DNA from: an uncultured Actinomycetes bacterium
GTDB lineage: Bacteria > Actinomycetota > Acidimicrobiia > Acidimicrobiales > RAAP-2
Assembly: GCA_903873775.1 (NCBI GenBank)
Contig: CAIQPR010000017.1
Location: 69,719-133,718 of the forward strand
Reading direction: 5' to 3'
DNA length: 64,000 bases
Shown: positions 13,468-53,210 of the stretch, piece by piece
Position numbering within the stretch: position 1 is the stretch's first letter
How the letters are laid out: the number at the start of each line of letters is the position of its first letter
The notes under the pieces: generated by a model
Database searches by the model: none
The model's input: only the letters and a program-made list of their open reading frames with translations
Told to the model about the DNA's origin: nothing
Program-made: the position numbers and the translations under genes

Positions 13468-15027
13468 GTGGCGGAAACTCGATTCGGACAAATTGGTCGT
13501 CTGGCGCAGCGTGTTCTGCCCATCCTGATTGTCATCGATCTACTTGCCGGCATTACTTTTCGATTCTGGACGAAATCGAAGTTGTGGCTCGACGAAGCAC
13601 AGGCCGTCAACATCTCCACACATTCACTCACTCAGATCGTCAGTTATCTGAAGAACGATGGCGCACCTCCGCTCTATTACTTCATCTTGCATTTCTGGAT
13701 GAAGGTTGTCGGAACGAGCGACAAAGACGTACGTGCTTTGTCTGGCGTCATCTCTGTGGCGACACTTCTCTTGGTCTACGGCGCCGCCAAAGCGTGGTGG
13801 GATCGACGGAGCGCAATTATCGCGGTGGCCATTGCGGCGGTATTGCCGTACTGCATCTACTTCGCGACCGAGACGCGCATGTACGCGCTCGTGATGGCAG
13901 AAAGTACGGCGCTCCTCTGGGTTCTTCGTGTGCATCTAGATCGGCCCCGTTGGTCAACAACGGTCGGAATGGCGCTGATCGGTTCGTGCCTTCTTTATAC
14001 CCACTACTGGGGCATTTACCTCTTAGGCGTGTTCGGACTGTTTGGGCTCATTCGGTGGTACCTCCATCGAGGTCAGCCGGAACGCCGCGATTGGATGTTG
14101 GTCCTCGCGCCCACTGTGGCCTTCGTGTCCTTCTTGCCGTGGGTGCCCATTTTTAACTCTCAACGACTCCACACGGGTACGCCGTGGTCGCCGGGACCAG
14201 GTCTGTACCAGATCTTCACGTGGTTCAACGGGTTCACGGTGAATCAAAGTGAGCACCTTGTGGCGTTGTCCCTGCACAACGAGATCACGATGCTGGTGTT
14301 CGTGGGTCTCGTCTTGTACGGGGTCTTCGGCCTCGTGATGACGCCGAAAGACAACCGTCTCATTCTGGACTGGACGGGGGTTCCAGAAACACGCACGATT
14401 GCCTTCATCACAATGACGACGATGGCCTTTGGTCTTCTCGCCTCTCACGTCTCGGGATCGGCCTACGTGCCCCGGTACGCCGCCGTCATAGCTATCCCCA
14501 TTGCGTTTCTCGCCGCGCGTGGAGTTCGCAATTTTGAGACGCCGCTACGCATCCTGATCGTTTTGGGTTTGATGTCGGGTGCGGCAATCTGGACTGACAA
14601 GTGGGGCGTACAGGTACAGCGAACGCAAGCCGGCGTCATTGGTACAGCTCTGCGTGCCGCTCCCGCCGGGTCGTTGGTCTACGTCTGTCCGGACCAGCTG
14701 GGGCCATCTCTGCTGCGTTATTCACCTACGAACCTCACCTACATCGGCTACCCGCGCTTTGAGAATCCGAAGATTGTGAATTGGTACGACTACCTCGACG
14801 CGTACAACGCGAGAACGCCCGCTCAAAATGCGGCCGCCCAGGCTGCAACCATTTCGTCCGGACAATCGGTCTACGTGGTGTGGGCGCCCAATTACGGGCT
14901 CAAATTGACATGCGTGGATTTCACGCGCGCATTGGCCGCGTCGCTTCATCGCCACATCGTGACGGTGGCGCCCTTGAATCTGAGTGGGTACTACCAATCC
15001 ATGGAGTTACAGCAACTCGTCGGATAG
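13468..15027 (+). CDS. GT-C glycosyltransferase (GT39/PMT_2-like, polyprenyl-phosphate-sugar dependent)
   Basis: LWLDEA after TM1, DGAPPLYY, ETRMYAL, YTHY; about 10 hydrophobic segments plus a C-terminal soluble domain. Confidence 0.85.
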   Translation: MAETRFGQIGRLAQRVLPILIVIDLLAGITFRFWTKSKLWLDEAQAVNISTHSLTQIVSYLKNDGAPPLYYFILHFWMKVVGTSDKDVRALSGVISVATLLLVYGAAKAWWDRRSAIIAVAIAAVLPYCIYFATETRMYALVMAESTALLWVLRVHLDRPRWSTTVGMALIGSCLLYTHYWGIYLLGVFGLFGLIRWYLHRGQPERRDWMLVLAPTVAFVSFLPWVPIFNSQRLHTGTPWSPGPGLYQIFTWFNGFTVNQSEHLVALSLHNEITMLVFVGLVLYGVFGLVMTPKDNRLILDWTGVPETRTIAFITMTTMAFGLLASHVSGSAYVPRYAAVIAIPIAFLAARGVRNFETPLRILIVLGLMSGAAIWTDKWGVQVQRTQAGVIGTALRAAPAGSLVYVCPDQLGPSLLRYSPTNLTYIGYPRFENPKIVNWYDYLDAYNARTPAQNAAAQAATISSGQSVYVVWAPNYGLKLTCVDFTRALAASLHRHIVTVAPLNLSGYYQSMELQQLVG

Positions 15028-15055
15028 TGCGAGAAAAGTTCATCTTCGCCTTGAC

Positions 15056-15061
15056 TAAGGT
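15056..15061 (+). promoter_or_regulatory. putative -10 element (TAAGGT), possible leaderless start at 15069
   Basis: TANNNT + 7 nt + ATG. Confidence 0.4.
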
Positions 15062-15068
15062 TTCAGGC

Positions 15069-16556
15069 ATGGATGAGCAGAAGCCCATTGTTGTCATCGG
15101 TGCAGGTCCGGCAGGATTGACAGCGGCGTACGAGATTCTCCGTCGGGGCGGTTCCGTGGTCGTGTACGAGTCCGACGGTGTCGTTGGCGGCATTAGTCGA
15201 ACCGTGGAGCGCGAGGGCTGGCGTTTCGATATTGGTGGACACCGGTTCTTCACGAAGGTGAAGGAAGTAGAGGCTTTCTGGCACGAGATTCTGCCCGATG
15301 AAGACTTTCTCCTTCGTCCCCGTATGTCACGCATTTTTTACGACGGGAAGTATTACGACTACCCACTAAAGCCCATGAACGCCCTGAAGAATCTGGGGTT
15401 CATTGAGGCCGTTCGTAGTGTCGGCAGTTACGGATGGGCGAAGGTCCATCCTCCGAAGGATCAGACCAACTACGAAGGTTGGTTGGTTGCGCGATTTGGC
15501 TGGCGCCTCTACCGACGGTTCTTTAAGACCTACACCGAGAAGGTGTGGGGCGTTCCCGTCAATCAAATGCCCGCCGACTGGGCGGCTCAGCGAGTGAAGG
15601 GTTTGTCGCTGGGTAACGCGATTTCTACTGCGCTGTCGCCGAAGAAGAAGCAGACGAACATCACCAGTCTGATTGAAGAATTTCAGTATCCGAAGTTCGG
15701 ACCCGGAATGATGTGGGAGCGCTGCACAGACTTGATTCGTGAAAAGGGAGGCCGCGTCGAGCTCCGCCACCGCGTGGTGGGCATTCGACACGAAAATGGA
15801 CAAGCCGTTGCCGTCAGGGTCAAGGGGCCCGATGGCGTCGTCTCCGAGCAGCCGGCGGCACACGTGATTTCCACGATGCCCATGGCCCAATTGGTTGACG
15901 CCTTCGAACCGGCCGCACCTTCCAGTGTCGTCACCGCGGGACACGATTTGCACTATCGCGACTTTTTGACGGTCGCTCTCGTCATTCCCGAAGACCAAGC
16001 CTTCCCAGACAACTGGATCTACATTCACGCGTCGGAAGTGAAGGTCGGACGTATTCAGAATTTCGGATCGTGGTCCCCGTACATGGTGAAGGAAGGTCGC
16101 ACCTGTCTCGGTCTTGAGTACTTCGTCTTCGAGGGTGACGAGTTGTGGAACGCCAAGGACGAGGATCTCATCGAGATGGGCAAGAAAGAACTTGCGTTCC
16201 TCGGGCTGATTTCCAATGATGTCACCATCGACACGGGGTACGTGTTCCGCATGCCGAAGGCGTACCCGTACTACGACGGCACGTACAAGCAGAATGTCAA
16301 GGTGATCAGTGACTACCTGGCGTCCGACATGTCGAATGTGCACCTGATCGGCCGCAACGGCATGCACAAGTACAACAATCAGGATCACTCGATGTACACG
16401 GCAATGCTCACGGTCGACAACATCTACGGTGCGCACAATGACATCTGGGCGGTGAACGTCGAAGAGGAGTATCACGAAACCTCCTCCACCTCGTCCGGAA
16501 GTGAAGGAACGGGGCGCGACGCACCTATTCTGCCGAAGCGCACCTCGATCACCTGA
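15069..16556 (+). CDS. FAD-dependent oxidoreductase, UDP-galactopyranose-mutase-like (eukaryote-type)
   Basis: VIGAGPAGLTAA FAD motif, FDIGGHRFF, WIYIH, PKAYP, GRNGMHKYNNQDHSM. Start set at ATG 15069. Confidence 0.75.
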   Translation: MDEQKPIVVIGAGPAGLTAAYEILRRGGSVVVYESDGVVGGISRTVEREGWRFDIGGHRFFTKVKEVEAFWHEILPDEDFLLRPRMSRIFYDGKYYDYPLKPMNALKNLGFIEAVRSVGSYGWAKVHPPKDQTNYEGWLVARFGWRLYRRFFKTYTEKVWGVPVNQMPADWAAQRVKGLSLGNAISTALSPKKKQTNITSLIEEFQYPKFGPGMMWERCTDLIREKGGRVELRHRVVGIRHENGQAVAVRVKGPDGVVSEQPAAHVISTMPMAQLVDAFEPAAPSSVVTAGHDLHYRDFLTVALVIPEDQAFPDNWIYIHASEVKVGRIQNFGSWSPYMVKEGRTCLGLEYFVFEGDELWNAKDEDLIEMGKKELAFLGLISNDVTIDTGYVFRMPKAYPYYDGTYKQNVKVISDYLASDMSNVHLIGRNGMHKYNNQDHSMYTAMLTVDNIYGAHNDIWAVNVEEEYHETSSTSSGSEGTGRDAPILPKRTSIT

Positions 16557-16561
16557 GTCCG

Positions 16562-17833
16562 GTGACACTCGTGTCGGGACCCACGGCGTCCTCTCCGTGG
16601 CGGCGGTTGCTGTCGAATGCACTACTTGTCGCCGTCGCCGGAGGCTTCGCCAACGTCCTGAATTTGGGCGTGACGTTTTTCATCGCGCGACTGCTGCAGC
16701 CCAATACCTACAGCGCCTACTCGCAGATGGTGGGAGTGTTTTTCGTTGTGGCGCTACCTGGGAGCGCGTTGAGCGTGGCGGTCGTGCGACGGGCCACCTA
16801 CTACATCGTGCGGGGAGAGGACGACGTCACGCGCCGCTGGGAGTACCGACTCCGCCAACGCGTTATTCGGGCGGCCGCCGTGGGCGCTCTGGGTTCTCTG
16901 CCTTTGGCGGTCGTGATTGCCCTGTGGTTGGGACACCGCGCGTGGATCGATGTGTGGCTGGTGATTTTGGCGGGCATTGTGTACGCGGTCGTGAGCGTCG
17001 ACCGCGCTTTGCTCCAATCACGCCAGAGATACAGCGCCCTCGCGGGGAACTTCGTTGTCGAGGGTCTCGTACGTACGGTTTTCATTCTGGTGGGCACGAC
17101 CTTCGGCGTCGCGGGGTACGGAGTGGGGCTGTTAGTGGCTGAATTGCTGACGCGTTGGCATTCGTCATGGTTAACGCGTCCCGAAGAACCCGTTGATCAC
17201 TCAATTTCCCTGACGCACACCGGTCTGACCAACGAGCTGATGGTGGCCTTTTGGACCTTGGGCATGATGGCCATTTTGCAGTTCATCGACGTGTTCACCA
17301 TTGGTCACGCCAATCCTCACGGTGGGGGTTCCTACACGGCGATCTCGCAAATCGCGAAGACTCTTGTCTACGCCGCCACGATCTTGAGCAGTTTTCTGTT
17401 ACCCGAGGCGGCTCTCGCGAATCGAAAAGGTGGTGACGTTGTCAAGCAGTTGGGAGTGGTGGGCGGGCTGCTCGCCGTGCCAGCCCTCGTGCTCACGGCG
17501 ACTGCCGCGCTCGCGCCCACATTGCTCGTAGACGTGTTTCCCGCGCAATATCGTCACGCCGCCGATTCACTCCTCACCTTGGTGGTCGCGATGGTGGCTC
17601 TCTCGGTGTCGACCGTCCTCGTGACGTTCCTGCTGGGCGACGGAGCTCGCTTGCCCACTCTGTGGCTGACTGCGTGCGTGTCCGTCGGTTTCTTCTGGAT
17701 TGTGGGCGCTCACGGGGTGTGGCATGAGACGGCGACAAGGGACCTCGAGGTGCAGTGCGTGGTCGTGGTGGGCCTCGTCGTCGCGTCGGGATTTCGGCTT
17801 CGTTCTCGTTTACGACTGGAGGCTGCGGCGTGA
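16562..17833 (+). CDS. polysaccharide/oligosaccharide flippase (Wzx/MOP-superfamily-like)
   Basis: About 12 hydrophobic segments, two-fold repeated architecture, located in a glycosyltransferase operon. Confidence 0.75.
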   Translation: MTLVSGPTASSPWRRLLSNALLVAVAGGFANVLNLGVTFFIARLLQPNTYSAYSQMVGVFFVVALPGSALSVAVVRRATYYIVRGEDDVTRRWEYRLRQRVIRAAAVGALGSLPLAVVIALWLGHRAWIDVWLVILAGIVYAVVSVDRALLQSRQRYSALAGNFVVEGLVRTVFILVGTTFGVAGYGVGLLVAELLTRWHSSWLTRPEEPVDHSISLTHTGLTNELMVAFWTLGMMAILQFIDVFTIGHANPHGGGSYTAISQIAKTLVYAATILSSFLLPEAALANRKGGDVVKQLGVVGGLLAVPALVLTATAALAPTLLVDVFPAQYRHAADSLLTLVVAMVALSVSTVLVTFLLGDGARLPTLWLTACVSVGFFWIVGAHGVWHETATRDLEVQCVVVVGLVVASGFRLRSRLRLEAAA

Positions 17834-18963
17834 CCCGCGATGCAACTGCCGAACTTCGTGAGTTGGTCGCCGCGTCCGGCCTTCGAACCATTCGCGTCAT
17901 CGCGTGGCGCGATCTCGACGACCCCGAGGCGGGCGGTAGTGAGCTGCACGCGGACGAGGTTCTACGACGATGGGCGGCCGCGGGTCTGTCGGTCGATCTG
18001 CGGACCTCGGCGGTTCCGGGACGCACCAAGCGCATCCGTCGGCACGGTTATTTCGTAGAGCGGTCGGGGGGCCGGTATCAGGTGTTCCCGCAAGCTGTTC
18101 TCCGCGGTTTCCGTCACGATCGCGATCACTATGACGCACTCGTTGAGATTTGGAACGGGATTCCGTTCTTTGGGCCTCTGTGGTTCAAAGGTCCTCGGCT
18201 CACCTTGCTGCACCATGTTCACGGCGCCATGTGGAAAATTTCGGTTCCTGGTCCGCTGTCCAAGGTGGGTTGGTGGCTTGAACATCGGGTCAGTCCTTTG
18301 ATCTATCGAAATTCGCGTATCTCCACATTGTCCAGTTCGAGTGCGGAAGAGATTAGAGACATCCTGCATCTTCGGGATGTGTCGGTTGTTCCCGTCGGGG
18401 TCTCGACGTTCTATTCGCCCGGCGGACAGCGTTCCGAGACCCCTCTCGTCGTTGCGGTGGGGCGACTGGCACCCGTGAAGAGGTTTGACATTCTGATTCG
18501 GACATTTGCGGAGGTGCGGGCCGCATGTCCGACCGCCCGTCTCGTCATTGCCGGCGAAGGTTACGTCCGCAGCGATCTCGAAGCCCTGGTGGAAGAGGTG
18601 GGGGGTCGGGAGTGGATTTCCTTGCCGGGTCGCATTAGTGACGAGGAACTTCGCGATTTGTACCGGTCCGCGTGGGTGCTGACGTCAACGTCGCTTCGAG
18701 AGGGCTGGGGAATGACGATTACCGAGGCCGCCGCCTGCGGCACGCCCGCCGTGGTCCATGACATTGCCGGTCACCACGACGCCGTGGACGCCAATCACAG
18801 TGGACTTCTTGTTCCTGAAACGGATTCGCTTGCCGACGCCCTGGTGAATGTTCTCAGTGACGCTGAATTGCGTGAACGGCTCGCATCCGGTGCCGCCGAA
18901 TACGCGGCAACCTTCTCGTGGGATGAAGTCGCGCTCTCGCTCTTTCGTCGGCTTGTCGACTAG
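17830..18963 (+). CDS. GT4 glycosyltransferase (Rv0225-like)
   Basis: WRDLDDPEAGGSE, GGRY, NGIPF, HHVH, VGRLAPVKR, TSLREGWG...EAAACGTP. GTGA overlap with the flippase gene. Confidence 0.9.
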   Translation: MTRDATAELRELVAASGLRTIRVIAWRDLDDPEAGGSELHADEVLRRWAAAGLSVDLRTSAVPGRTKRIRRHGYFVERSGGRYQVFPQAVLRGFRHDRDHYDALVEIWNGIPFFGPLWFKGPRLTLLHHVHGAMWKISVPGPLSKVGWWLEHRVSPLIYRNSRISTLSSSSAEEIRDILHLRDVSVVPVGVSTFYSPGGQRSETPLVVAVGRLAPVKRFDILIRTFAEVRAACPTARLVIAGEGYVRSDLEALVEEVGGREWISLPGRISDEELRDLYRSAWVLTSTSLREGWGMTITEAAACGTPAVVHDIAGHHDAVDANHSGLLVPETDSLADALVNVLSDAELRERLASGAAEYAATFSWDEVALSLFRRLVD

Positions 18964-18969
18964 GGCGAG

Positions 18970-21900
18970 TTAGCGACGTTCGATCACAACGACGAGGTCG
19001 TGGATGATGAGGTCCCGCATGAGCGGCACCTTGAGAGTCCATCGCCACGAAGGCCCGAGGAGGCGAGGGCCCACCGTGTAGAGAGCGAGACCTCGGTGCT
19101 GTCGGACGATGCGGACCAATTCGTGCGGACGTAGGGCAAACAGCGTCTCCCCAAATCGCTTGTCAGGCTCGTGGCCCGTCTTGGTGCGATAGCGACGGCG
19201 CCCGTAGGAACCGGAGACCAGGTGCCACGGGCTGGTCTCAAACCCTCCGGTGGGCGAGAGCCACATGCGGTTCTGCACGAAAATGGACCCGCCGGGTCGC
19301 GTCACACGAACCACTTCTTCAAGGAGTCGCCGTGGGTCGTCGACGAAAGAAAAAATGTCGTGCACGATGACGAGGTCGAAACTTCCGTCACGAACGGGGA
19401 TATTCAAAGGTTGAAACGGAATCTCGTCGAGGTACGACACGCGCGGTGTTGGTGAGTCGACGTCCTCGAGAGAGCTCGCCGTCGGCACTCGCATGGCCGT
19501 CACGCGGGCACCACGTTCGGCGAGCGCTTCCGCTGCGGCGAGGCGAGGGTCGGCAATCTCCAAGACCTCACGATTGAAAATTGCGGTGCGACCCACGACC
19601 AGATTGGTGGTGTCTTGTCGCATCAGAGCGTCCAATTCCTCAGGTTGATGGCGCAAGCGACGTGCGGCCCGGAGGAAAAACAAGGTCCTCGGAAGCCCGA
19701 CGACCGGGATCTGCATTGGCTCGTCGGGTTCGATCTCCTCGGTCGGCTGATTGTGGTCCGGGTCAGCAACGTTGAGTCCGCGTCGACGTCGAGCGACGAG
19801 CGCCGGCGCGACGACGACCGGTACTTTCGACGCTCCCGGCATCCATCGACGCGTACGGCGGGACTCTGTGGGGGCGGCCTCGCCTCGAGGGGCCTCTTTC
19901 GTTGCGCTGGCGGCGGGCGGCGGCGTATCTCGAGGAGTAGGTCGCGGTCGTGCGGCTCGCGAGGAGAGAGCCTGGGGCTGGACATTGGCAATCACCAGGA
20001 AGAACCACAGCGCCATGGCGAACCAGACGAAGCTATTGCTGTAGTGGACATGAGCGGGCCACGTGATGTCTCTGGTCCACGTGCCGAGCGTTGCCGACAT
20101 GGTGACGGCAATACCCGCCAGTAGGGACAGGACGGCGCTGGCGCCGAGTAAACGGCCAATCGAGGGACGTGCGCGCCACACCCACGCCGCCGCCACGAGG
20201 AACGGCACCATCCAGATGGACACGAAGAGGCCAATGATCACCGCGGCCGTGTACGTGACGAGGGGTGACGACGTGACATTACCCACGAACACAGAGAGCA
20301 CGGGCGTGGCGTCAACGTGCTCGCGAGTCATTTCGTCAACACTGAGACCACGGCGTCGGGGCCAGTTGAAGACGGCGATGCCGAGCACCGCGAGGAAACC
20401 GAAGAGTGATGCGAGGAGAGCGTAGAGAACGGTGTTCTGCGGTTGCCAGACGAAGGCGAGCTGTTCAGTTGACGAGATGTGCGAAGGAAGACGCCACCCC
20501 ATTGACGCCCCGTCGACGAGGGTCGGTGTGCCGAGATCGCGACCGTTCAAGATTGCGTGCCAACCCGGACCGTAGGACTGTCCGAGAACCGCCCACTGTC
20601 CGGCGTCTGCTGAACCAACCGTGGAGCGAACGACGGTGCGTCCGTACCAGTGTCCGGCCGCGTCGGAAACGGTGGGTACTGGCCCGGCCGTGGTACCCGT
20701 TGACGAGAGCTGAACGTCGTCGAGATCAAGACCGGTCGCAAGTCCGGGGCTGGAGGTAATGACGGATTGACCGGCGGAGACGGTGGTGGGTGCAGTAGCG
20801 CAGGACGTGAACGGCAAGGCGTCTCCAGCCAGAGCCGACGCCGAGCTCCCGCTCACACGAATCGGAATCGACACGCCATCGATCTTGAGCAGGTCGCTGC
20901 GGCAGCCGGACGAGAACGTGGGATTCGTGACACCCGGCGTCACACCGGGAATGGCGATGTCCGCGATGGCGATGGGTGGGAAATTGATGCCGCCGCTGAC
21001 GCGGTCGAGGACGGTGGCGGTCTTGAACTTGACCGTAGTAAATCGAAACGCTGAGCCCGTGATCGCGGGAACGTTGATGGTGAAGATCTGCTCCGTATTC
21101 AGAGCAGAGCCCTGAGCCGCGAGCGTTGTGGGTATCGCGAAGTTTTCGGTAGTGCGCCCGTTGCTAATGCTCATTTCGGTCGGTACCGCGTGATAACCGT
21201 CGTTCACGATGGTCATCTTGAAGGTGTGAATGGTCACAGAGTGCGACAGCGTCGCTTGGACAAATTCTCCAGCACCAGACTTGAAACGAGGCTGCCACAG
21301 AGTTTGCAGCGAGCCGTCGAAGGCGCTCCACGACGAGTTGGCGAGGGAACCTTTGATGTGTGACGAACTTGTCGTGGCGATAATCGACGTGCCGGCGCCG
21401 GGGTGTCGCCCCAGGATCTCATTGACGACCTGGTCGCTCGCGAGTGAATTGAGCGACGCCGTGCCCGAGATCGTGAAAGAGCGGGAATAGGGCAGGTCCA
21501 CGTAGCGCAGCAGATACGGCTCTGGGTCGGCTCGGACTGAATAGGGAGAGACTCGAAGTCGGGATACGACGATCTTGAGAGAGTCAGTCTGTGCGGCAGA
21601 GCCTGCCGCGGCGAGTAGGGACGTGGGGAGGAGCAACCCTCTCGTGGCCGGACCAAAACCCGGGACCGCAACTTCCGAGAATCCCACCATGCTCGCGGTG
21701 GCGACGCCGTGTGGCGCTGCCGTCACTCCCAGAATCGTGATCCGAACCGTACGTCCGGTGGTTGGAGGTATGGAAATGGTCTGACCCGGCGGATTCTGAG
21801 ACGATGGCGTCAAGGTCCGGATGATGTTCGGCCGACCGTCAACGGATATCCCAATCTTGGTGATGTAACGGTTAATAAAGATGTCGCGCGCTTGCGTGAT

Positions 21901-24252
21901 CTGCAGCGAGGAAATTCGGTGGGGCTCCAGTGCTGTCTCCTGCCACCACTGCCCGTCGGCATTCGAGAAGGCGGCTGTTGCCCACGACGTGGTGGAGTCT
22001 CCATCGACAGCCTTATACGCCTGATTCTCTGGGTTGTTCGTGATGGGGTTTCCATAACTGGACGCCGTCACGGATGAGAGGCCCGTGAGTTCCGCGACGG
22101 TTTGGGAATTCGCAGGAGCGTTGGGGAAAACCGGAATGCTCTGCTCTTGCTCGTTGTTCGAGTACTTCTCGTTCGCCGCAAGTACGTAGCCCTGCGTGGC
22201 GTTCAGGGTTCCGAACGTCTGTTGCGACTTTGTATTGGAGTCGGTCAGCACCAATGTGGCGCCGGCTTGGTGCGCCTCCTCGGCGATCATGGAGCGAGGT
22301 GTCGACGCGTCATAGAGAATGACATTGCCGCCCGAGAGTCCACCCACGTTCGCGAGCGTCACGAGGCCCGCTCCATCACCGGCGACGATGTAGGGAGAGC
22401 TCGTTGATTCCACACGCACCAGAGGGCGAGCCGCGCTCACGGAATAGATCTTGAGCGATGGCGGCCACTGGTAACCGGGAGGCAAGGCGAGAGTGTTCTC
22501 GTTGATATAGGGACCATTGATGGCGGTGAATGTCGTCTGAGGTCCGTACGAGCCCACTTCGGTCATCCCGACGTTCGGAGATGAAAAGAGGTGGTCTAAG
22601 TACGGGGGTAGTGGTGTTCCGTATCGCTCATACTGTCCGTCAAACTGCACCAACACGTTTGACGCCCCAAACAAACGCGCAATCGGAGCAATGGAGGCCG
22701 GCTCGGCGACGCCATCTTGGAGAGTGGAGTCCAGCGAACGTATGAGGTTGATACTCGCCGGCTCTCCAACGAGTTGGACCTGCGAGGAGATCCAGGGACG
22801 GTGCACCAGCGCGGGCCACAATGAATCGTTGTAGGTCCCGTAGCGGTAATAGGCGAAATCAAATCCTGGCAAGCCGAGGACATTGCTCGTCGACGAGCCG
22901 GTATTGAGTTCCTTCGCGGCCTGCTGGACGTAGGAGGGAGGCGTCTCGGGCAGCGTCAGGTTGGAGGGGATGGACCGCAGTGTGAACAAGGGCGACATCG
23001 CCGTGATGCACGCGAGCGAGAAGACCCCGACGCTCCACCACTGAAGACGGGGCCAGCGAGCGACCAGTGCGTCAAAGAGGGCTCCGGCCAAAAGCGCCAG
23101 TCCAATGGTCATGATCGGGATCACCCGATTGGTGGAGCGCATGGCGAGAGCGACCGTCGTATGGGTGGCGAGGTACCGCAAGACGACACCAAATGGTGTC
23201 GGACTCGACAGTGGGTACGACGCCACCGCGACTACCAAGCCAATGAAGGTGACACCAACTGCAAACAGGCGGTACCGCCAACGAATCACGAGAGCGGCCA
23301 CGAACCCCGTAGCTGGGACGAGAAAACTGGCGAGGGGAACCACGTTGCCGCTCGTGTAGTGAATCGAGTTCCCTGTCCATAACTGCAGTCCGTCAGTGCC
23401 GTAGAAGTACCAGTACCCCAAGCCACGGAATACCTCGGAGGCCGACGATGTGAGCGTCACCGTGGAGAACGATTCTGTGAACTTCAAAATATTGATGCCG
23501 TACTTGCCCTCAGCCCACAGTCCGGCCAGCCACCACAAGGACACGACGAGCGAGAGCGAGCCCATGCGGATCAGCACGGCGCGAACGCGGCGCCACGGAA
23601 TTTCTCGAGTCGCGGCGGCGAAGAAGAGCCAGGCGATGGGGGCAAGACCAACCGTCAGAATCGATGTGGCGTTAATACCGCCCGCCAACGCCACGACGAT
23701 GGCAAATAAAGCGGGATTGCGCCAGTCATTGCGGTGGGCCGCACGAATTGTGAAGACCATCATCCAGCCAAGTCCCGCCCACGGCATGAGGAGGGCCGAG
23801 GTACGGGCGATGTCGACGATGATGAAGGGCGACAACATGTACGCAAGGGCGACCAAGAATCCCGCGCGACGCGTTAATCCCATTTCGGCGGCGCATTTGC
23901 GAGCTCCAAGACCCGCGAGGAAGAGCAGGCCACCCATCCAGACGCGTTGGGCTATCCAGGTCGGAACACTCAACGCGTGACAGATCCAGTAGTAGGGACC
24001 CATCGGGAAGAGGTATCCGATGTTTTGGTGGGTGACGGTCCCGAACCCGACGTCGGTGTTCCACATGGACGCCGCTGTGGCGAGAAGGTGAGACGGGTCG
24101 AGGTAGAGATAGACCTTGGTGTCGTCGGCAAGCAGCCCCGGCTTCGTCAGCAAGAGGGGCGCGAAGGCCAGCACGATCAAGACCACTGTGTCCCACGGTG
24201 ACTCGAGCCAGCGTCGGCGCGTGGCGGATACGTCTGAGGCGCCAAGGGTCAC
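18970..24252 (-). CDS. AftD/DUF3367-like arabinofuranosyltransferase with carbohydrate-binding modules, fused to a C-terminal Rv0224c/MtrP-like methyltransferase-fold domain
   Basis: N-terminal GT-C region (DDTK, HQNIGYLFPMGPYY, GGINAT), two discoidin/F5-8-like modules (AVDGDSTTSW, AFDGSLQTLW), C-terminal TM block, Pro/Arg linker, then a class I MTase-like domain (SFDLVIV, EVVRVTRPGG, WLSPTGGFE). Confidence 0.85.
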   Translation of the reverse strand: MTLGASDVSATRRRWLESPWDTVVLIVLAFAPLLLTKPGLLADDTKVYLYLDPSHLLATAASMWNTDVGFGTVTHQNIGYLFPMGPYYWICHALSVPTWIAQRVWMGGLLFLAGLGARKCAAEMGLTRRAGFLVALAYMLSPFIIVDIARTSALLMPWAGLGWMMVFTIRAAHRNDWRNPALFAIVVALAGGINATSILTVGLAPIAWLFFAAATREIPWRRVRAVLIRMGSLSLVVSLWWLAGLWAEGKYGINILKFTESFSTVTLTSSASEVFRGLGYWYFYGTDGLQLWTGNSIHYTSGNVVPLASFLVPATGFVAALVIRWRYRLFAVGVTFIGLVVAVASYPLSSPTPFGVVLRYLATHTTVALAMRSTNRVIPIMTIGLALLAGALFDALVARWPRLQWWSVGVFSLACITAMSPLFTLRSIPSNLTLPETPPSYVQQAAKELNTGSSTSNVLGLPGFDFAYYRYGTYNDSLWPALVHRPWISSQVQLVGEPASINLIRSLDSTLQDGVAEPASIAPIARLFGASNVLVQFDGQYERYGTPLPPYLDHLFSSPNVGMTEVGSYGPQTTFTAINGPYINENTLALPPGYQWPPSLKIYSVSAARPLVRVESTSSPYIVAGDGAGLVTLANVGGLSGGNVILYDASTPRSMIAEEAHQAGATLVLTDSNTKSQQTFGTLNATQGYVLAANEKYSNNEQEQSIPVFPNAPANSQTVAELTGLSSVTASSYGNPITNNPENQAYKAVDGDSTTSWATAAFSNADGQWWQETALEPHRISSLQITQARDIFINRYITKIGISVDGRPNIIRTLTPSSQNPPGQTISIPPTTGRTVRITILGVTAAPHGVATASMVGFSEVAVPGFGPATRGLLLPTSLLAAAGSAAQTDSLKIVVSRLRVSPYSVRADPEPYLLRYVDLPYSRSFTISGTASLNSLASDQVVNEILGRHPGAGTSIIATTSSSHIKGSLANSSWSAFDGSLQTLWQPRFKSGAGEFVQATLSHSVTIHTFKMTIVNDGYHAVPTEMSISNGRTTENFAIPTTLAAQGSALNTEQIFTINVPAITGSAFRFTTVKFKTATVLDRVSGGINFPPIAIADIAIPGVTPGVTNPTFSSGCRSDLLKIDGVSIPIRVSGSSASALAGDALPFTSCATAPTTVSAGQSVITSSPGLATGLDLDDVQLSSTGTTAGPVPTVSDAAGHWYGRTVVRSTVGSADAGQWAVLGQSYGPGWHAILNGRDLGTPTLVDGASMGWRLPSHISSTEQLAFVWQPQNTVLYALLASLFGFLAVLGIAVFNWPRRRGLSVDEMTREHVDATPVLSVFVGNVTSSPLVTYTAAVIIGLFVSIWMVPFLVAAAWVWRARPSIGRLLGASAVLSLLAGIAVTMSATLGTWTRDITWPAHVHYSNSFVWFAMALWFFLVIANVQPQALSSRAARPRPTPRDTPPPAASATKEAPRGEAAPTESRRTRRWMPGASKVPVVVAPALVARRRRGLNVADPDHNQPTEEIEPDEPMQIPVVGLPRTLFFLRAARRLRHQPEELDALMRQDTTNLVVGRTAIFNREVLEIADPRLAAAEALAERGARVTAMRVPTASSLEDVDSPTPRVSYLDEIPFQPLNIPVRDGSFDLVIVHDIFSFVDDPRRLLEEVVRVTRPGGSIFVQNRMWLSPTGGFETSPWHLVSGSYGRRRYRTKTGHEPDKRFGETLFALRPHELVRIVRQHRGLALYTVGPRLLGPSWRWTLKVPLMRDLIIHDLVVVIERR

Positions 24253-51683: not shown

Positions 51684-52315
51684 AGACAAAGGAAACCGTC
51701 GGTTGGAAGGTCTTCCGAGGCCTCCTGCGGGGGATCTGGGGTGTCATGTTTCGACCCGATGTCACGGGAACGGAAAACATCCCGACCTCCGGTCCGGTAC
51801 TGATTGCGCCGATTCACCGCTCGAACGTGGACTTTGCGTTCACTATTTTCATGACGCGCCGGAAGACGTTCTTCATGGCGAAGGACTCCCTGTGGGGTGT
51901 CCCCGTGCTCGCACAGTTGATTTCGACCATGGGCGCCTTTCCGGTCAAGCGCGGTACTGCTGATCGAGAATCGCTGGCGTTCGCGCAGCAAGTGCTCGAA
52001 GAGGGTCAGGCACTCGTGTTGTTTCCCGAAGGCACTCGACAAGAAGGCAACGACGTGAAGGACTTGCACGATGGTGCGATGTTCATAGCGTCTCGAACGG
52101 GCGCACCTGTTGTGCCGGTCGGCATTGGTCACACCGAACGGGCGATGCCACGTGGGGCGAAGTTTCCGCGACCGGTCAAAGTTTCCATTGTTATTGGCGA
52201 GCCCATTCAGCCCCCCACGAGTGAGACGCGTGTCACTCGATCGCAGATTGCCGCAGCTACGGAAGAACTCCGGGCGTCACTCGAAAAGGTCTACGCCCAG
52301 TCCATGCGCAATTAG
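51656..52315 (+). CDS. plsC: 1-acyl-sn-glycerol-3-phosphate acyltransferase
   Basis: HRSNVD (H-X4-D), FPEGTR; follows cmk. Confidence 0.9.
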   Translation: MSDISHIELKTKETVGWKVFRGLLRGIWGVMFRPDVTGTENIPTSGPVLIAPIHRSNVDFAFTIFMTRRKTFFMAKDSLWGVPVLAQLISTMGAFPVKRGTADRESLAFAQQVLEEGQALVLFPEGTRQEGNDVKDLHDGAMFIASRTGAPVVPVGIGHTERAMPRGAKFPRPVKVSIVIGEPIQPPTSETRVTRSQIAAATEELRASLEKVYAQSMRN

Positions 52316-53109
52316 CGCTCGCGCCACCAGGTGCCGAAGACCACGCGCGTGTAGCGATAGCCGAAGAGCCAGTTCTTGCCCTTCTTCGTCGTTCCGGAGT
52401 GACGGGGGTACCAGTTCGTCGGCACCTCGCTCACTCGCCATCCTCGCTTGAGACACGTGATGAGGAGTTCTGCCGTCTGGTACTGCTCCTGCTCCAAGCG
52501 GTCAATCACGTCGGCCATCATCGACACCCGCAGCGCGCGGTAGCCGTTCGACGTGTCCGTCAAGTGAGATCCCGTCATGCGATTCATCACAAAGGAGAAA
52601 AACTTCACACCAGTCTTGCGAAAGCGGTCGGTGGTGTTGTCAATACCGAGCGCCCGCGACGCCACGACGAAGTCACTTTCGTCCGTGAGCAACGGTGCAA
52701 TGAGCTGAGGGATCTCGACGGGGTCATTTTGTCCATCAGAGTCGATGGTCACGATGTACTTCACGCCATTGTCAATGCAGTAGCGATATCCCACCTGGAG
52801 GGCGACGCCGTGTCCGAGATTGGTGGGAAATTCAATGACGCGCACGCCATCAAACGAGCGGCTGATGTCGGACGTGGCGTCATCCCCACCGTCAACCACC
52901 ACGAGCGTCGTGTAGGGCTGACCGTCAATCGACTCGGGCATCTTCGACAGGACGTGTCCGATGTTGCCTTCTTCTTCGTAGGCGCAGAACAGCACGACGA
53001 TGTCCTCGGGCGTGAAGCCGGGATAGTCACTCTCGAAGCGGCTCATGGCTTCGCCAATGGCGTACTTACGCAGTCCGGCTAAACGGCGCTTCTCAAGATC
53101 TACGGCCAT
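52312..53109 (-). CDS. GT2 glycosyltransferase, polyprenol-phosphate sugar synthase (Ppm1/DPM1-like)
   Basis: CAYEE, VVDGGDD, NLGHG, DSDGQ (DxD), TDTSNGYR. SD GAGGAGG before ATG 53109. Confidence 0.85.
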   Translation of the reverse strand: MAVDLEKRRLAGLRKYAIGEAMSRFESDYPGFTPEDIVVLFCAYEEEGNIGHVLSKMPESIDGQPYTTLVVVDGGDDATSDISRSFDGVRVIEFPTNLGHGVALQVGYRYCIDNGVKYIVTIDSDGQNDPVEIPQLIAPLLTDESDFVVASRALGIDNTTDRFRKTGVKFFSFVMNRMTGSHLTDTSNGYRALRVSMMADVIDRLEQEQYQTAELLITCLKRGWRVSEVPTNWYPRHSGTTKKGKNWLFGYRYTRVVFGTWWRER

Positions 53110-53210
53110 AACGTCGGTCCTCCTCGGCGGATTCCGGTGCGCAGATCCATTCCCCTGTGACACACCGAAAAGTTGTTCCTCAAACTTACCGGTCGAGAAA
53201 TGGTGCTCAC

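Follow-up and report, generated by a model that had tools for sequence, protein, structure and literature searches.

The machinery that builds arabinan has been studied almost exclusively in mycolate bacteria, in which it is a drug target, and the decaprenyl-phospho-arabinose (DPA) pathway is textbook knowledge. The mycobacterial AftD protein (Rv0236c; structures 6W98 and 6WBX) combines a GT-C glycosyltransferase domain (PF11847) with several periplasmic carbohydrate-binding modules and a C-terminal membrane bundle, and residues K39, D41, E251, K361 and D474 are essential in the Mycobacterium abscessus enzyme (Tan et al.). The same study places AftD homologues across actinobacterial orders, and includes Ilumatobacter in an alignment legend. 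In actinomycetes, AftD is associated with a GT4 glycosyltransferase, a methyltransferase and DUF3068 proteins (Rv0224c-MtrP, Rv0225 and Rv0236c in mycobacteria); Rv0225 is described in the literature only as a protein of unknown function. Two further groups of described proteins are relevant here, namely the eukaryote-type UDP-galactopyranose mutases (UGMs) of Aspergillus fumigatus and Trypanosoma cruzi and the Wzx/WzxE flippases of the MOP superfamily. Relatives of all of these are brought together in a cluster of five genes at positions 13468-24252 of a 64,000-nucleotide stretch of DNA (the window) from an uncultured member of the Acidimicrobiia. The window belongs to contig C17 of an assembly of 1.97 Mb (91% complete), and the cluster is a real, conserved five-gene cell-envelope sugar-polymer locus in this class.

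All five genes were recovered from the open reading frame listing and from Pfam and NCBIfam scans of the window, and the identities given to them in an earlier note on this DNA (a GT39-like GT-C, a UGM-like flavoenzyme, a flippase, a GT4 and an AftD-methyltransferase fusion) were upheld by the family scans and by predicted folds:

13468-15027, plus strand: PMT_2-type (GT39/GT83-like) GT-C glycosyltransferase, 519 aa (PF13231)
15069-16556, plus strand: eukaryote-type UGM-like flavoenzyme, 495 aa (NF005548, PRK07208.1-4, NCBIfam title 'hypothetical protein')
16562-17833, plus strand: membrane protein of the MOP superfamily (Wzx/MurJ/MATE fold, as predicted), putative lipid-linked glycan flippase, 423 aa
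17830-18963, plus strand: retaining GT-B glycosyltransferase of family GT4, about 377 aa (Glycos_transf_1, Glyco_transf_4)
18970-24252, minus strand: AftD-like protein, whole, 1760 aa (PF11847, GT-C_AftD)
22153-24252, minus strand: N-terminal GT-C domain of the AftD-like protein, residues 1-700 (PF11847)
19831-22152, minus strand: extracytoplasmic carbohydrate-binding modules and C-terminal membrane segment of the AftD-like protein, about residues 701-1474 (F5_F8_type_C, CBM_AftD)
18970-19830, minus strand: linker and degenerate C-terminal cytoplasmic class I methyltransferase-like domain of the AftD-like protein, about residues 1475-1760 (Methyltransf_11)

The four plus-strand genes are separated by gaps of 41 nt and 5 nt and then by a 4-nt overlap, and the AftD-like gene converges on this run with 6 nt between it and the GT4 gene. 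An identical five-gene order, with an AftD-methyltransferase fusion of 1762 aa, is found in independent metagenome contigs and in close relatives, the named ones being Acidimicrobiia or Acidimicrobiales metagenome-assembled genomes, as are most of the close relatives retrieved. Because the same architecture recurs in independent contigs and related genomes, the cluster is not a chance juxtaposition.

The preferred reading, which is given a probability of about one half, is that the cluster assembles a furanose-containing envelope glycan, that it is fed by UDP-furanose and by DPA from an unlinked pathway, and that the methyltransferase domain is a non-catalytic appendage. In the cytoplasm, the UGM-like flavoenzyme would convert a UDP-pyranose (by default taken to be UDP-galactopyranose) to the furanose form, and the GT4 enzyme, with glycosyltransferases encoded elsewhere, would make a lipid-linked intermediate that the MOP/Wzx-like protein would flip over the membrane. 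On the outer side, the AftD-like GT-C would grip the polymer by its carbohydrate-binding modules and extend or branch it with arabinofuranose from DPA, a donor that would be supplied by a UbiA-type phosphoribosyltransferase, DprE1 and DprE2 encoded on other contigs. The PMT_2-type GT-C would attach a further residue from a polyprenyl-phosphate sugar, and the methyltransferase-like domain, no longer able to bind S-adenosylmethionine (SAM), would probably be a structural or regulatory cytoplasmic appendage. Every substrate in this scheme, the order of the steps and the nature of the product are inferred.

The DPA genes lie at the ends of two other contigs of the assembly. Contig C29 encodes a decaprenyl-phosphate phosphoribosyltransferase (NF008978, 309 bits against a cut-off of 207), which is followed by the N-terminal 281 residues of a DprE1 that runs off the end of the contig (C29:14496-15371). 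The C-terminal 159 residues of DprE1 open contig C63 (C63:2-481), and are followed by DprE2 (NF053786, 252.4 bits against a cut-off of 250). On NF053785, which has a cut-off of 500 bits, the two parts of the split DprE1 score 312.6 and 206.9 bits and cover model positions 2-291 and 297-449. As the two halves lie at facing contig ends, C29 and C63 are almost certainly adjacent in the genome, in the order phosphoribosyltransferase-DprE1-DprE2, and, as judged from these sequences, the DPA pathway of the window genome is complete with regard to the three enzymes. The earlier note had described the cluster as self-contained and as possibly a DprE-independent furanose route, and had itself stated that no alternative route would be needed if a complete DPA pathway were encoded elsewhere in the genome; both descriptions fall, as the DPA donor genes lie on other contigs and the cluster therefore need not be a DprE-independent route. 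The statement that the window holds no dprE, ubiA or emb gene was borne out, since UbiA-family genes occur only on C34, C10 and C29, DprE1 occurs only on C29 and C63, and a whole-genome search found no Emb anywhere.

The flavoenzyme is very probably a nucleotide-sugar pyranose-furanose mutase, a prediction that draws on family, fold and active-site comparisons. Its gene starts at the ATG at 15069, not at the TTG at 14781, and the product scores 781 bits on NF005548, while remaining under the cut-offs of the Pfam GLF model (17.2 against 26.3 bits) and of TIGR00031 (35.6 against 303.75 bits). The best sequence matches in the PDB are the A. fumigatus and T. cruzi UGMs (E = 4e-21), with bacterial Glf and amine oxidases far behind, and each of the first 14 matches is a UGM. 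An AlphaFold (AF2) model of the protein (pLDDT 82.8) has the three-domain UGM fold, and in a Foldseek search its first 34 matches are all eukaryotic UGMs (TM 0.77-0.84, root-mean-square deviation 3.3-3.7 Å), followed by protoporphyrinogen oxidases at a TM of about 0.74. The window enzyme thus shares with the eukaryotic UGMs a length of about 500 aa, the fold and a GGH histidine loop, but it is only 20-22% identical to them, is bacterial, and is encoded beside GT-C glycosyltransferases. Alignment with A. fumigatus UGM shows that 9 of 11 mapped substrate-contact residues are retained: H58, R175, W316, Y318 and R328 correspond to H63, R182, W315, Y317 and R327 of the fungal enzyme, and R429, Y435, N437 and Q438 to R447, Y453, N457 and Q458. 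The two departures are Q107 to K and Y334 to W. The nine retained residues are flavin, sugar or diphosphate contacts, and none of them varies among 24 aligned family members that, by record name, come from Acidimicrobiia, other Actinomycetota, Gemmatimonadota, Planctomycetota and Chloracidobacterium. A canonical Glf is found nowhere in the window genome, which leaves the flavoenzyme as the sole candidate furanose-nucleotide mutase there.

A different activity for this protein is improbable but has some points in its favor. The flavoenzyme could be an oxidoreductase of the protoporphyrinogen oxidase, phytoene desaturase or amine oxidase type, acting on the polyprenyl carrier or on another envelope lipid with no mutase function. 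Such a role would agree with the Amino_oxidase assignment by Pfam and the sub-threshold GLF score, with the protoporphyrinogen oxidase label that source databases often give to the family, with the rank of protoporphyrinogen oxidase structures as the second-best fold, and with the 'hypothetical' title at NCBIfam. It is harder to reconcile with a list of structural and sequence matches that is headed exclusively by UGMs, with the invariance of nine UGM contact residues across phyla, and with a gene neighborhood made up of glycosyltransferases.

The flavoenzyme family is large, with more than 8000 matches and 53-80% identity across phyla, and literature searches turned up no paper characterizing either a PRK07208-type flavoenzyme or a bacterial UGM of the eukaryote type. 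The PRK07208-type proteins, still 'hypothetical' at NCBI, thus represent a concrete and assayable candidate enzyme family. NF005548 also exceeds its cut-off in the control genome of Caulobacter vibrioides, so that a genetically tractable host is available for this uncharacterized family.

The AftD-like protein scores 262.1 bits on PF11847 (cut-off 26; 266 bits in the whole-genome search) and aligns with M. abscessus AftD over residues 7-1385 at about 24% identity (E = 1e-43). Its carbohydrate-binding modules are recognized by F5_F8_type_C (E = 6e-17) and CBM_AftD (E = 1.4e-6), and hydrophobic helices of a C-terminal membrane segment can be seen in the translation at about residues 1290-1440. 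The resulting order of an N-terminal membrane GT-C domain, periplasmic modules and a C-terminal membrane segment agrees with the AftD topology in the literature. The five essential M. abscessus residues K39, D41, E251, K361 and D474 correspond to K, Y, E, R and D in the window protein. The tyrosine is a property of the whole Acidimicrobiia AftD-like clade, which has ADTKxYLYLDP where mycobacterial proteins have DTKLDL, placing Tyr at the D41 site and Asp four residues on. A maximum-likelihood tree of 49 GT-C domains places the window protein within a 41-member Acidimicrobiia clade (support 100/100), and not as an ortholog within the mycobacterial-type clade. AftD-like sequences that score 553-663 bits form a separate clade, also with 100/100 support, of which two show the mycobacterial-type DTKxD. 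One gene of 600 bits on PF11847 (G012:C8:16164-18218), encoding the mycobacterial-type sequence DTKIDMAIDP, belongs to a 96%-complete genome in which DprE1 and the phosphoribosyltransferase were not found.

The window protein therefore has in common with mycobacterial AftD the PF11847 GT-C domain, the multiple periplasmic modules, the C-terminal membrane bundle, the equivalents of K39, E251 and D474, and a DPA pathway in the genome. It differs in belonging to a separate clade, in the changes of D41 to Tyr and K361 to Arg, and in its extra degenerate methyltransferase domain, and its setting differs in the absence of Emb from the genome, in the lack of a mycolate context and in the occurrence of other clade members in genomes without DPA genes. 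Literature searches on AftD or DprE1 in Acidimicrobiia, or on DUF3367, returned nothing relevant. For this machinery the lineage, described in the earlier note as not known for arabinogalactan, is no newcomer, since AftD homologues in Acidimicrobiales have been published and about half of the class has AftD-like genes and DprE1.

The C-terminal domain of the AftD-like protein matches Methyltransf_11 at residues 1574-1658 (E = 1e-10). Motif I reads VLEIADPRL, as against VLDVGGGPG in an intact fusion of another lineage, and motif II reads VTAMRV as against YLGLDP, with loss of the acidic residue. Both hallmarks of SAM binding, a glycine-rich motif I and an acidic residue in motif II, are thus missing, and the domain is, on this motif comparison, degenerate. 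Fusion of AftD to a methyltransferase was seen in only 17 protein clusters, and a profile search found more than 6300 standalone homologues of the domain (241-274 aa), mainly in Micromonosporaceae and Pseudonocardiales. For example, in Micromonospora andamanensis a standalone homologue directly follows AftD with overlapping stop and start codons, and a PorA/DUF3068 gene lies beside it. The association of GT4, AftD and methyltransferase invoked in the earlier note is thus real in actinomycetes, as this Micromonospora locus also has a GT4 that is 33% identical to that of the window. When compared through the Micromonospora sequences, the window cluster shares the same three families with the actinomycete association, but its methyltransferase, which no longer has the SAM-binding motifs, is part of the AftD-like protein, and it has additional genes for a UGM-like enzyme, an MOP flippase and a PMT_2 GT-C. 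A DUF3068/PorA gene was not observed in the window cluster, although no search was aimed at DUF3068.

The remaining three proteins are supported to different degrees. The 519-aa GT-C scores 40.2 bits on PF13231 (PMT_2; cut-off 26.1) and has a weak NCBIfam match to mannosyltransferases. It carries a DE motif, LWLDEAQ, after the first membrane helix, that is, acidic residues in the first external loop, and its gene adjoins that of the flavoenzyme at most of the Actinomycetota loci examined. The 423-aa polytopic membrane protein has no Pfam match even at E = 10, no NCBIfam match and no PDB sequence match, and so is not assigned by sequence to the Polysacc_synt, MurJ or MatE families. An entirely helical AF2 model (pLDDT 82.8, pTM 0.84) retrieves MATE transporters, the lipid III flippase WzxE and MurJ as the top Foldseek matches (TM 0.60-0.70, probability 1.00), by which the flippase label is supported at the level of the predicted fold only. 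The protein resembles the Wzx/WzxE flippases in its helical MOP fold (TM up to 0.69 to WzxE), in having the size of a 12-helix transporter, and in being encoded within a glycan cluster, but differs from them in lacking detectable sequence-family membership. The GT4 gene probably starts at the GTG at 17830, which overlaps the preceding stop codon as GTGA (homologues are called at 380 aa), and its product matches Glycos_transf_1 (E = 8.6e-34) and Glyco_transf_4 (E = 7e-8). The 33% identity to the GT4 near Micromonospora AftD extends over the full length, and in relatives the GT4 gene is either directly upstream of the AftD-like gene or convergent on it.

A census of 201 genomes of the class indicates how often these genes occur together. 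AftD-like genes were found in 94 of the 201 genomes, DprE1 in 97, the phosphoribosyltransferase in 99, the flavoenzyme in 89 and canonical Glf in 10. DprE1 accompanies the AftD-like gene in 82 of 94 genomes (odds ratio 42) and the flavoenzyme does so in 78 of 94 (odds ratio 43), with 11 genomes having the flavoenzyme without an AftD-like gene and 16 having the reverse. Physical linkage separates the two partners. Of 77 genomes with both genes, 47 have the flavoenzyme start no more than 30 kb from the AftD-like gene, and 33 have it within 10 kb; the genes are on separate contigs in 25 of the 77 and on the same contig in 52, 47 of which show the linkage. DprE1 is within 30 kb of the AftD-like gene in just 14 of 82 genomes, and 13 of those belong to a single family, f3. 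In two genomes of family f21 (G009:C1:469773-474965 and G115:C61:12827-17809), the flavoenzyme gene is directly beside the phosphoribosyltransferase and DprE1 genes, which suggests that both donor systems feed one product. The window's genus is represented by seven genomes, all with the DPA genes; five of them also have both the AftD-like gene and the flavoenzyme, and two have neither. Co-occurrence of the cluster genes in related genomes, which the reading in the earlier note required, is thus supported by the conserved loci and by the census. Two other patterns were given little or no weight. That an AftD-like gene is always accompanied by DPA genes or by the flavoenzyme (93 of 94) was set aside as a sign that the two complement each other, as independence predicts about two genomes with neither and one was seen; and an apparent exclusivity of Glf and flavoenzyme (one genome with both, nine with Glf only; Fisher p = 0.045) counts for little because nine of the ten Glf genomes are from one family.

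Collectively, about half of the sampled genomes of the Acidimicrobiia, a mostly uncultured class, have the DPA pathway and a distinct clade of AftD-like proteins, and in most families these genes usually lie in physical linkage with an uncharacterized bacterial relative of the eukaryotic UGMs, which would extend furanose-rich envelope glycans beyond the Mycobacteriales. Three features appear to be undescribed: a degenerate methyltransferase fused to AftD, the systematic linkage of AftD-like genes with a bacterial family of eukaryote-type UGM-like enzymes, and the presence of AftD-like genes in genomes without DPA genes.

The setting of the cluster bears on whether its genes form one system. 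It is flanked by an opp-type ABC transporter on one side and by coaE-uvrB-uvrA-uvrC on the other, with polA and rpsA upstream. More distant Acidimicrobiia keep the cluster with insertions. At the same opp-coaE site, one abundant lineage (L089) has only the GT-C and flavoenzyme pair, which implies that the site is modular. Another lineage (L060) has the flavoenzyme, flippase and GT4 without the AftD-like gene. Conservation of the pairs 'PMT_2 GT-C plus flavoenzyme' and 'GT4 then AftD' in each case extends further than that of the full cluster, and for flavoenzymes of Gemmatimonadota, Planctomycetota and Acidobacteriota (53-56% identity) no AftD-like gene was present within the flanks examined. 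It is accordingly conceivable, though rather doubtful, that two unrelated modules stand side by side in a variable opp-coaE slot, with the GT-C and flavoenzyme serving, for instance, protein or lipid O-glycosylation and the flippase, GT4 and AftD-like protein serving another purpose. The two truncated loci, the 11 and 16 genomes with one gene and not the other, and the reach of the flavoenzyme family into phyla where its flanks hold no AftD-like gene all speak for this division. It is opposed by the tight linkage of flavoenzyme and AftD-like gene in 47 of 52 same-contig genomes, by their joint gain or loss inside the genus, and by the operon-like spacing of the four plus-strand genes (4-nt overlap and 5-nt gap).

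Several observations weigh against the reading that the cluster makes a furanose glycan from UDP-furanose and DPA. The lineage with only the GT-C and flavoenzyme pair is one of these, as is the tyrosine in place of the essential D41 of M. abscessus AftD. Family f3 has AftD-like genes but lacks the flavoenzyme in nearly all genomes and Glf in most, implying that a UGM is not required for AftD-like function. DprE1 is present without any AftD-like gene in 15 genomes, two of them within the window's genus, and DPA must therefore have other users. The window genome encodes other GT-C proteins (two GT87 and three PMT_2 above cut-off, and thus further PMT_2 enzymes beyond that of the cluster), the census statistics are uncorrected for phylogeny, and ten genomes without DPA genes carry AftD-like genes of the window's clade.

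In these ten genomes, which are 92-100% complete, the AftD-like gene is accompanied by the flavoenzyme, and searches for DprE1 and for the phosphoribosyltransferase were negative, which raises the question of the donor that their AftD-like enzymes use. Five of the ten were included in the AftD tree, as was a genome (G168) that keeps the phosphoribosyltransferase and lacks DprE1, and the AftD-like proteins of all six interleave with those of DPA-positive genomes in the single 100/100 clade. The AftD-like subfamily of the window thus does not strictly need DPA. Loci of the DPA-less genomes have the order PMT_2 GT-C and flavoenzyme, then a gene X, then GT4 and AftD, the product of X being either a GT2 (alone, or fused to a methyltransferase and then with an ALG5-like motif) or another PMT_2 GT-C. 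From gene content, this order fits a route from UDP-furanose through a polyprenyl-phospho-furanose to the GT-C enzymes, without proving one. In one such genome (G086), a 530-aa GT2-methyltransferase fusion is encoded at L091:9926-11518, where it separates the flavoenzyme from GT4-AftD; its GT2 part has an ALG5-like motif, TQCGLKAF, its class I methyltransferase is intact, and a 74%-identical copy is present in L022. This methyltransferase was considered as a member of the AftD-associated family and rejected; it is class I kin (hhalign probability 95.9%), but the C-terminal SPWH motif is missing.

The gene content of these loci leads to a tentative and rather unlikely proposal, in which the PRK07208-type flavoenzyme is a widespread mutase of the eukaryotic type and an ALG5/Ppm1-like GT2 makes a polyprenyl-phospho-furanose for the PMT_2 and AftD-like GT-C enzymes, independently of DprE1 and DprE2. 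If true, polyprenyl-phospho-furanose would be the sole donor route in at least 10 DPA-less, AftD-bearing Acidimicrobiia and a parallel one in the window genome. Two genes of the window genome resemble the ALG5/Ppm1-like GT2 of the DPA-less loci: a 283-aa open reading frame at 52312-53163 of the window (minus strand), 28 kb from the cluster, does so weakly (25% identity), and a GT2 on contig C13 (26221-27210) is more similar in sequence (39% identity).

For the window cluster itself, a DprE1/DprE2-independent route parallel to DPA seems unlikely; in such a route, polyprenyl phosphate would receive the mutase product, and the lipid-linked furanose would be flipped and serve both GT-C enzymes as donor. 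Linkage of the flavoenzyme to AftD-like genes in many families argues for such a route, as linkage of DprE1 to AftD-like genes is almost confined to f3, where the flavoenzyme is missing from nearly all genomes. The route would also account for the retention of the flavoenzyme and of same-clade AftD-like genes in the ten DPA-less genomes, for the ALG5/Ppm1-like GT2, methyltransferase-fused in one case, between the flavoenzyme and GT4-AftD at several of their loci, and for the nearly constant partnership of the flavoenzyme with a PMT_2 GT-C. A precedent is provided by the mycobacterial decoration route in which a GT2 acts with a GT-C (PpgS/Rv3779). The window genome, however, has a complete DPA pathway, its cluster has no GT2, and, to our knowledge, GT4 enzymes do not load polyprenyl phosphate. 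The 93 of 94 pattern is expected under independence, and literature searches found no documented lipid-linked furanose donor made from UDP-furanose. A supply of DPA from the unlinked pathway remains the preferred reading for the window cluster.

Related loci also point to modification of the product. At L094 and L096 (genomes G078 and G120), several Acyl_transf_3 (AT3) membrane acyltransferases, one of them SGNH-fused, lie between GT4-AftD and the flavoenzyme, which suggests that the glycan is O-acylated in these lineages.

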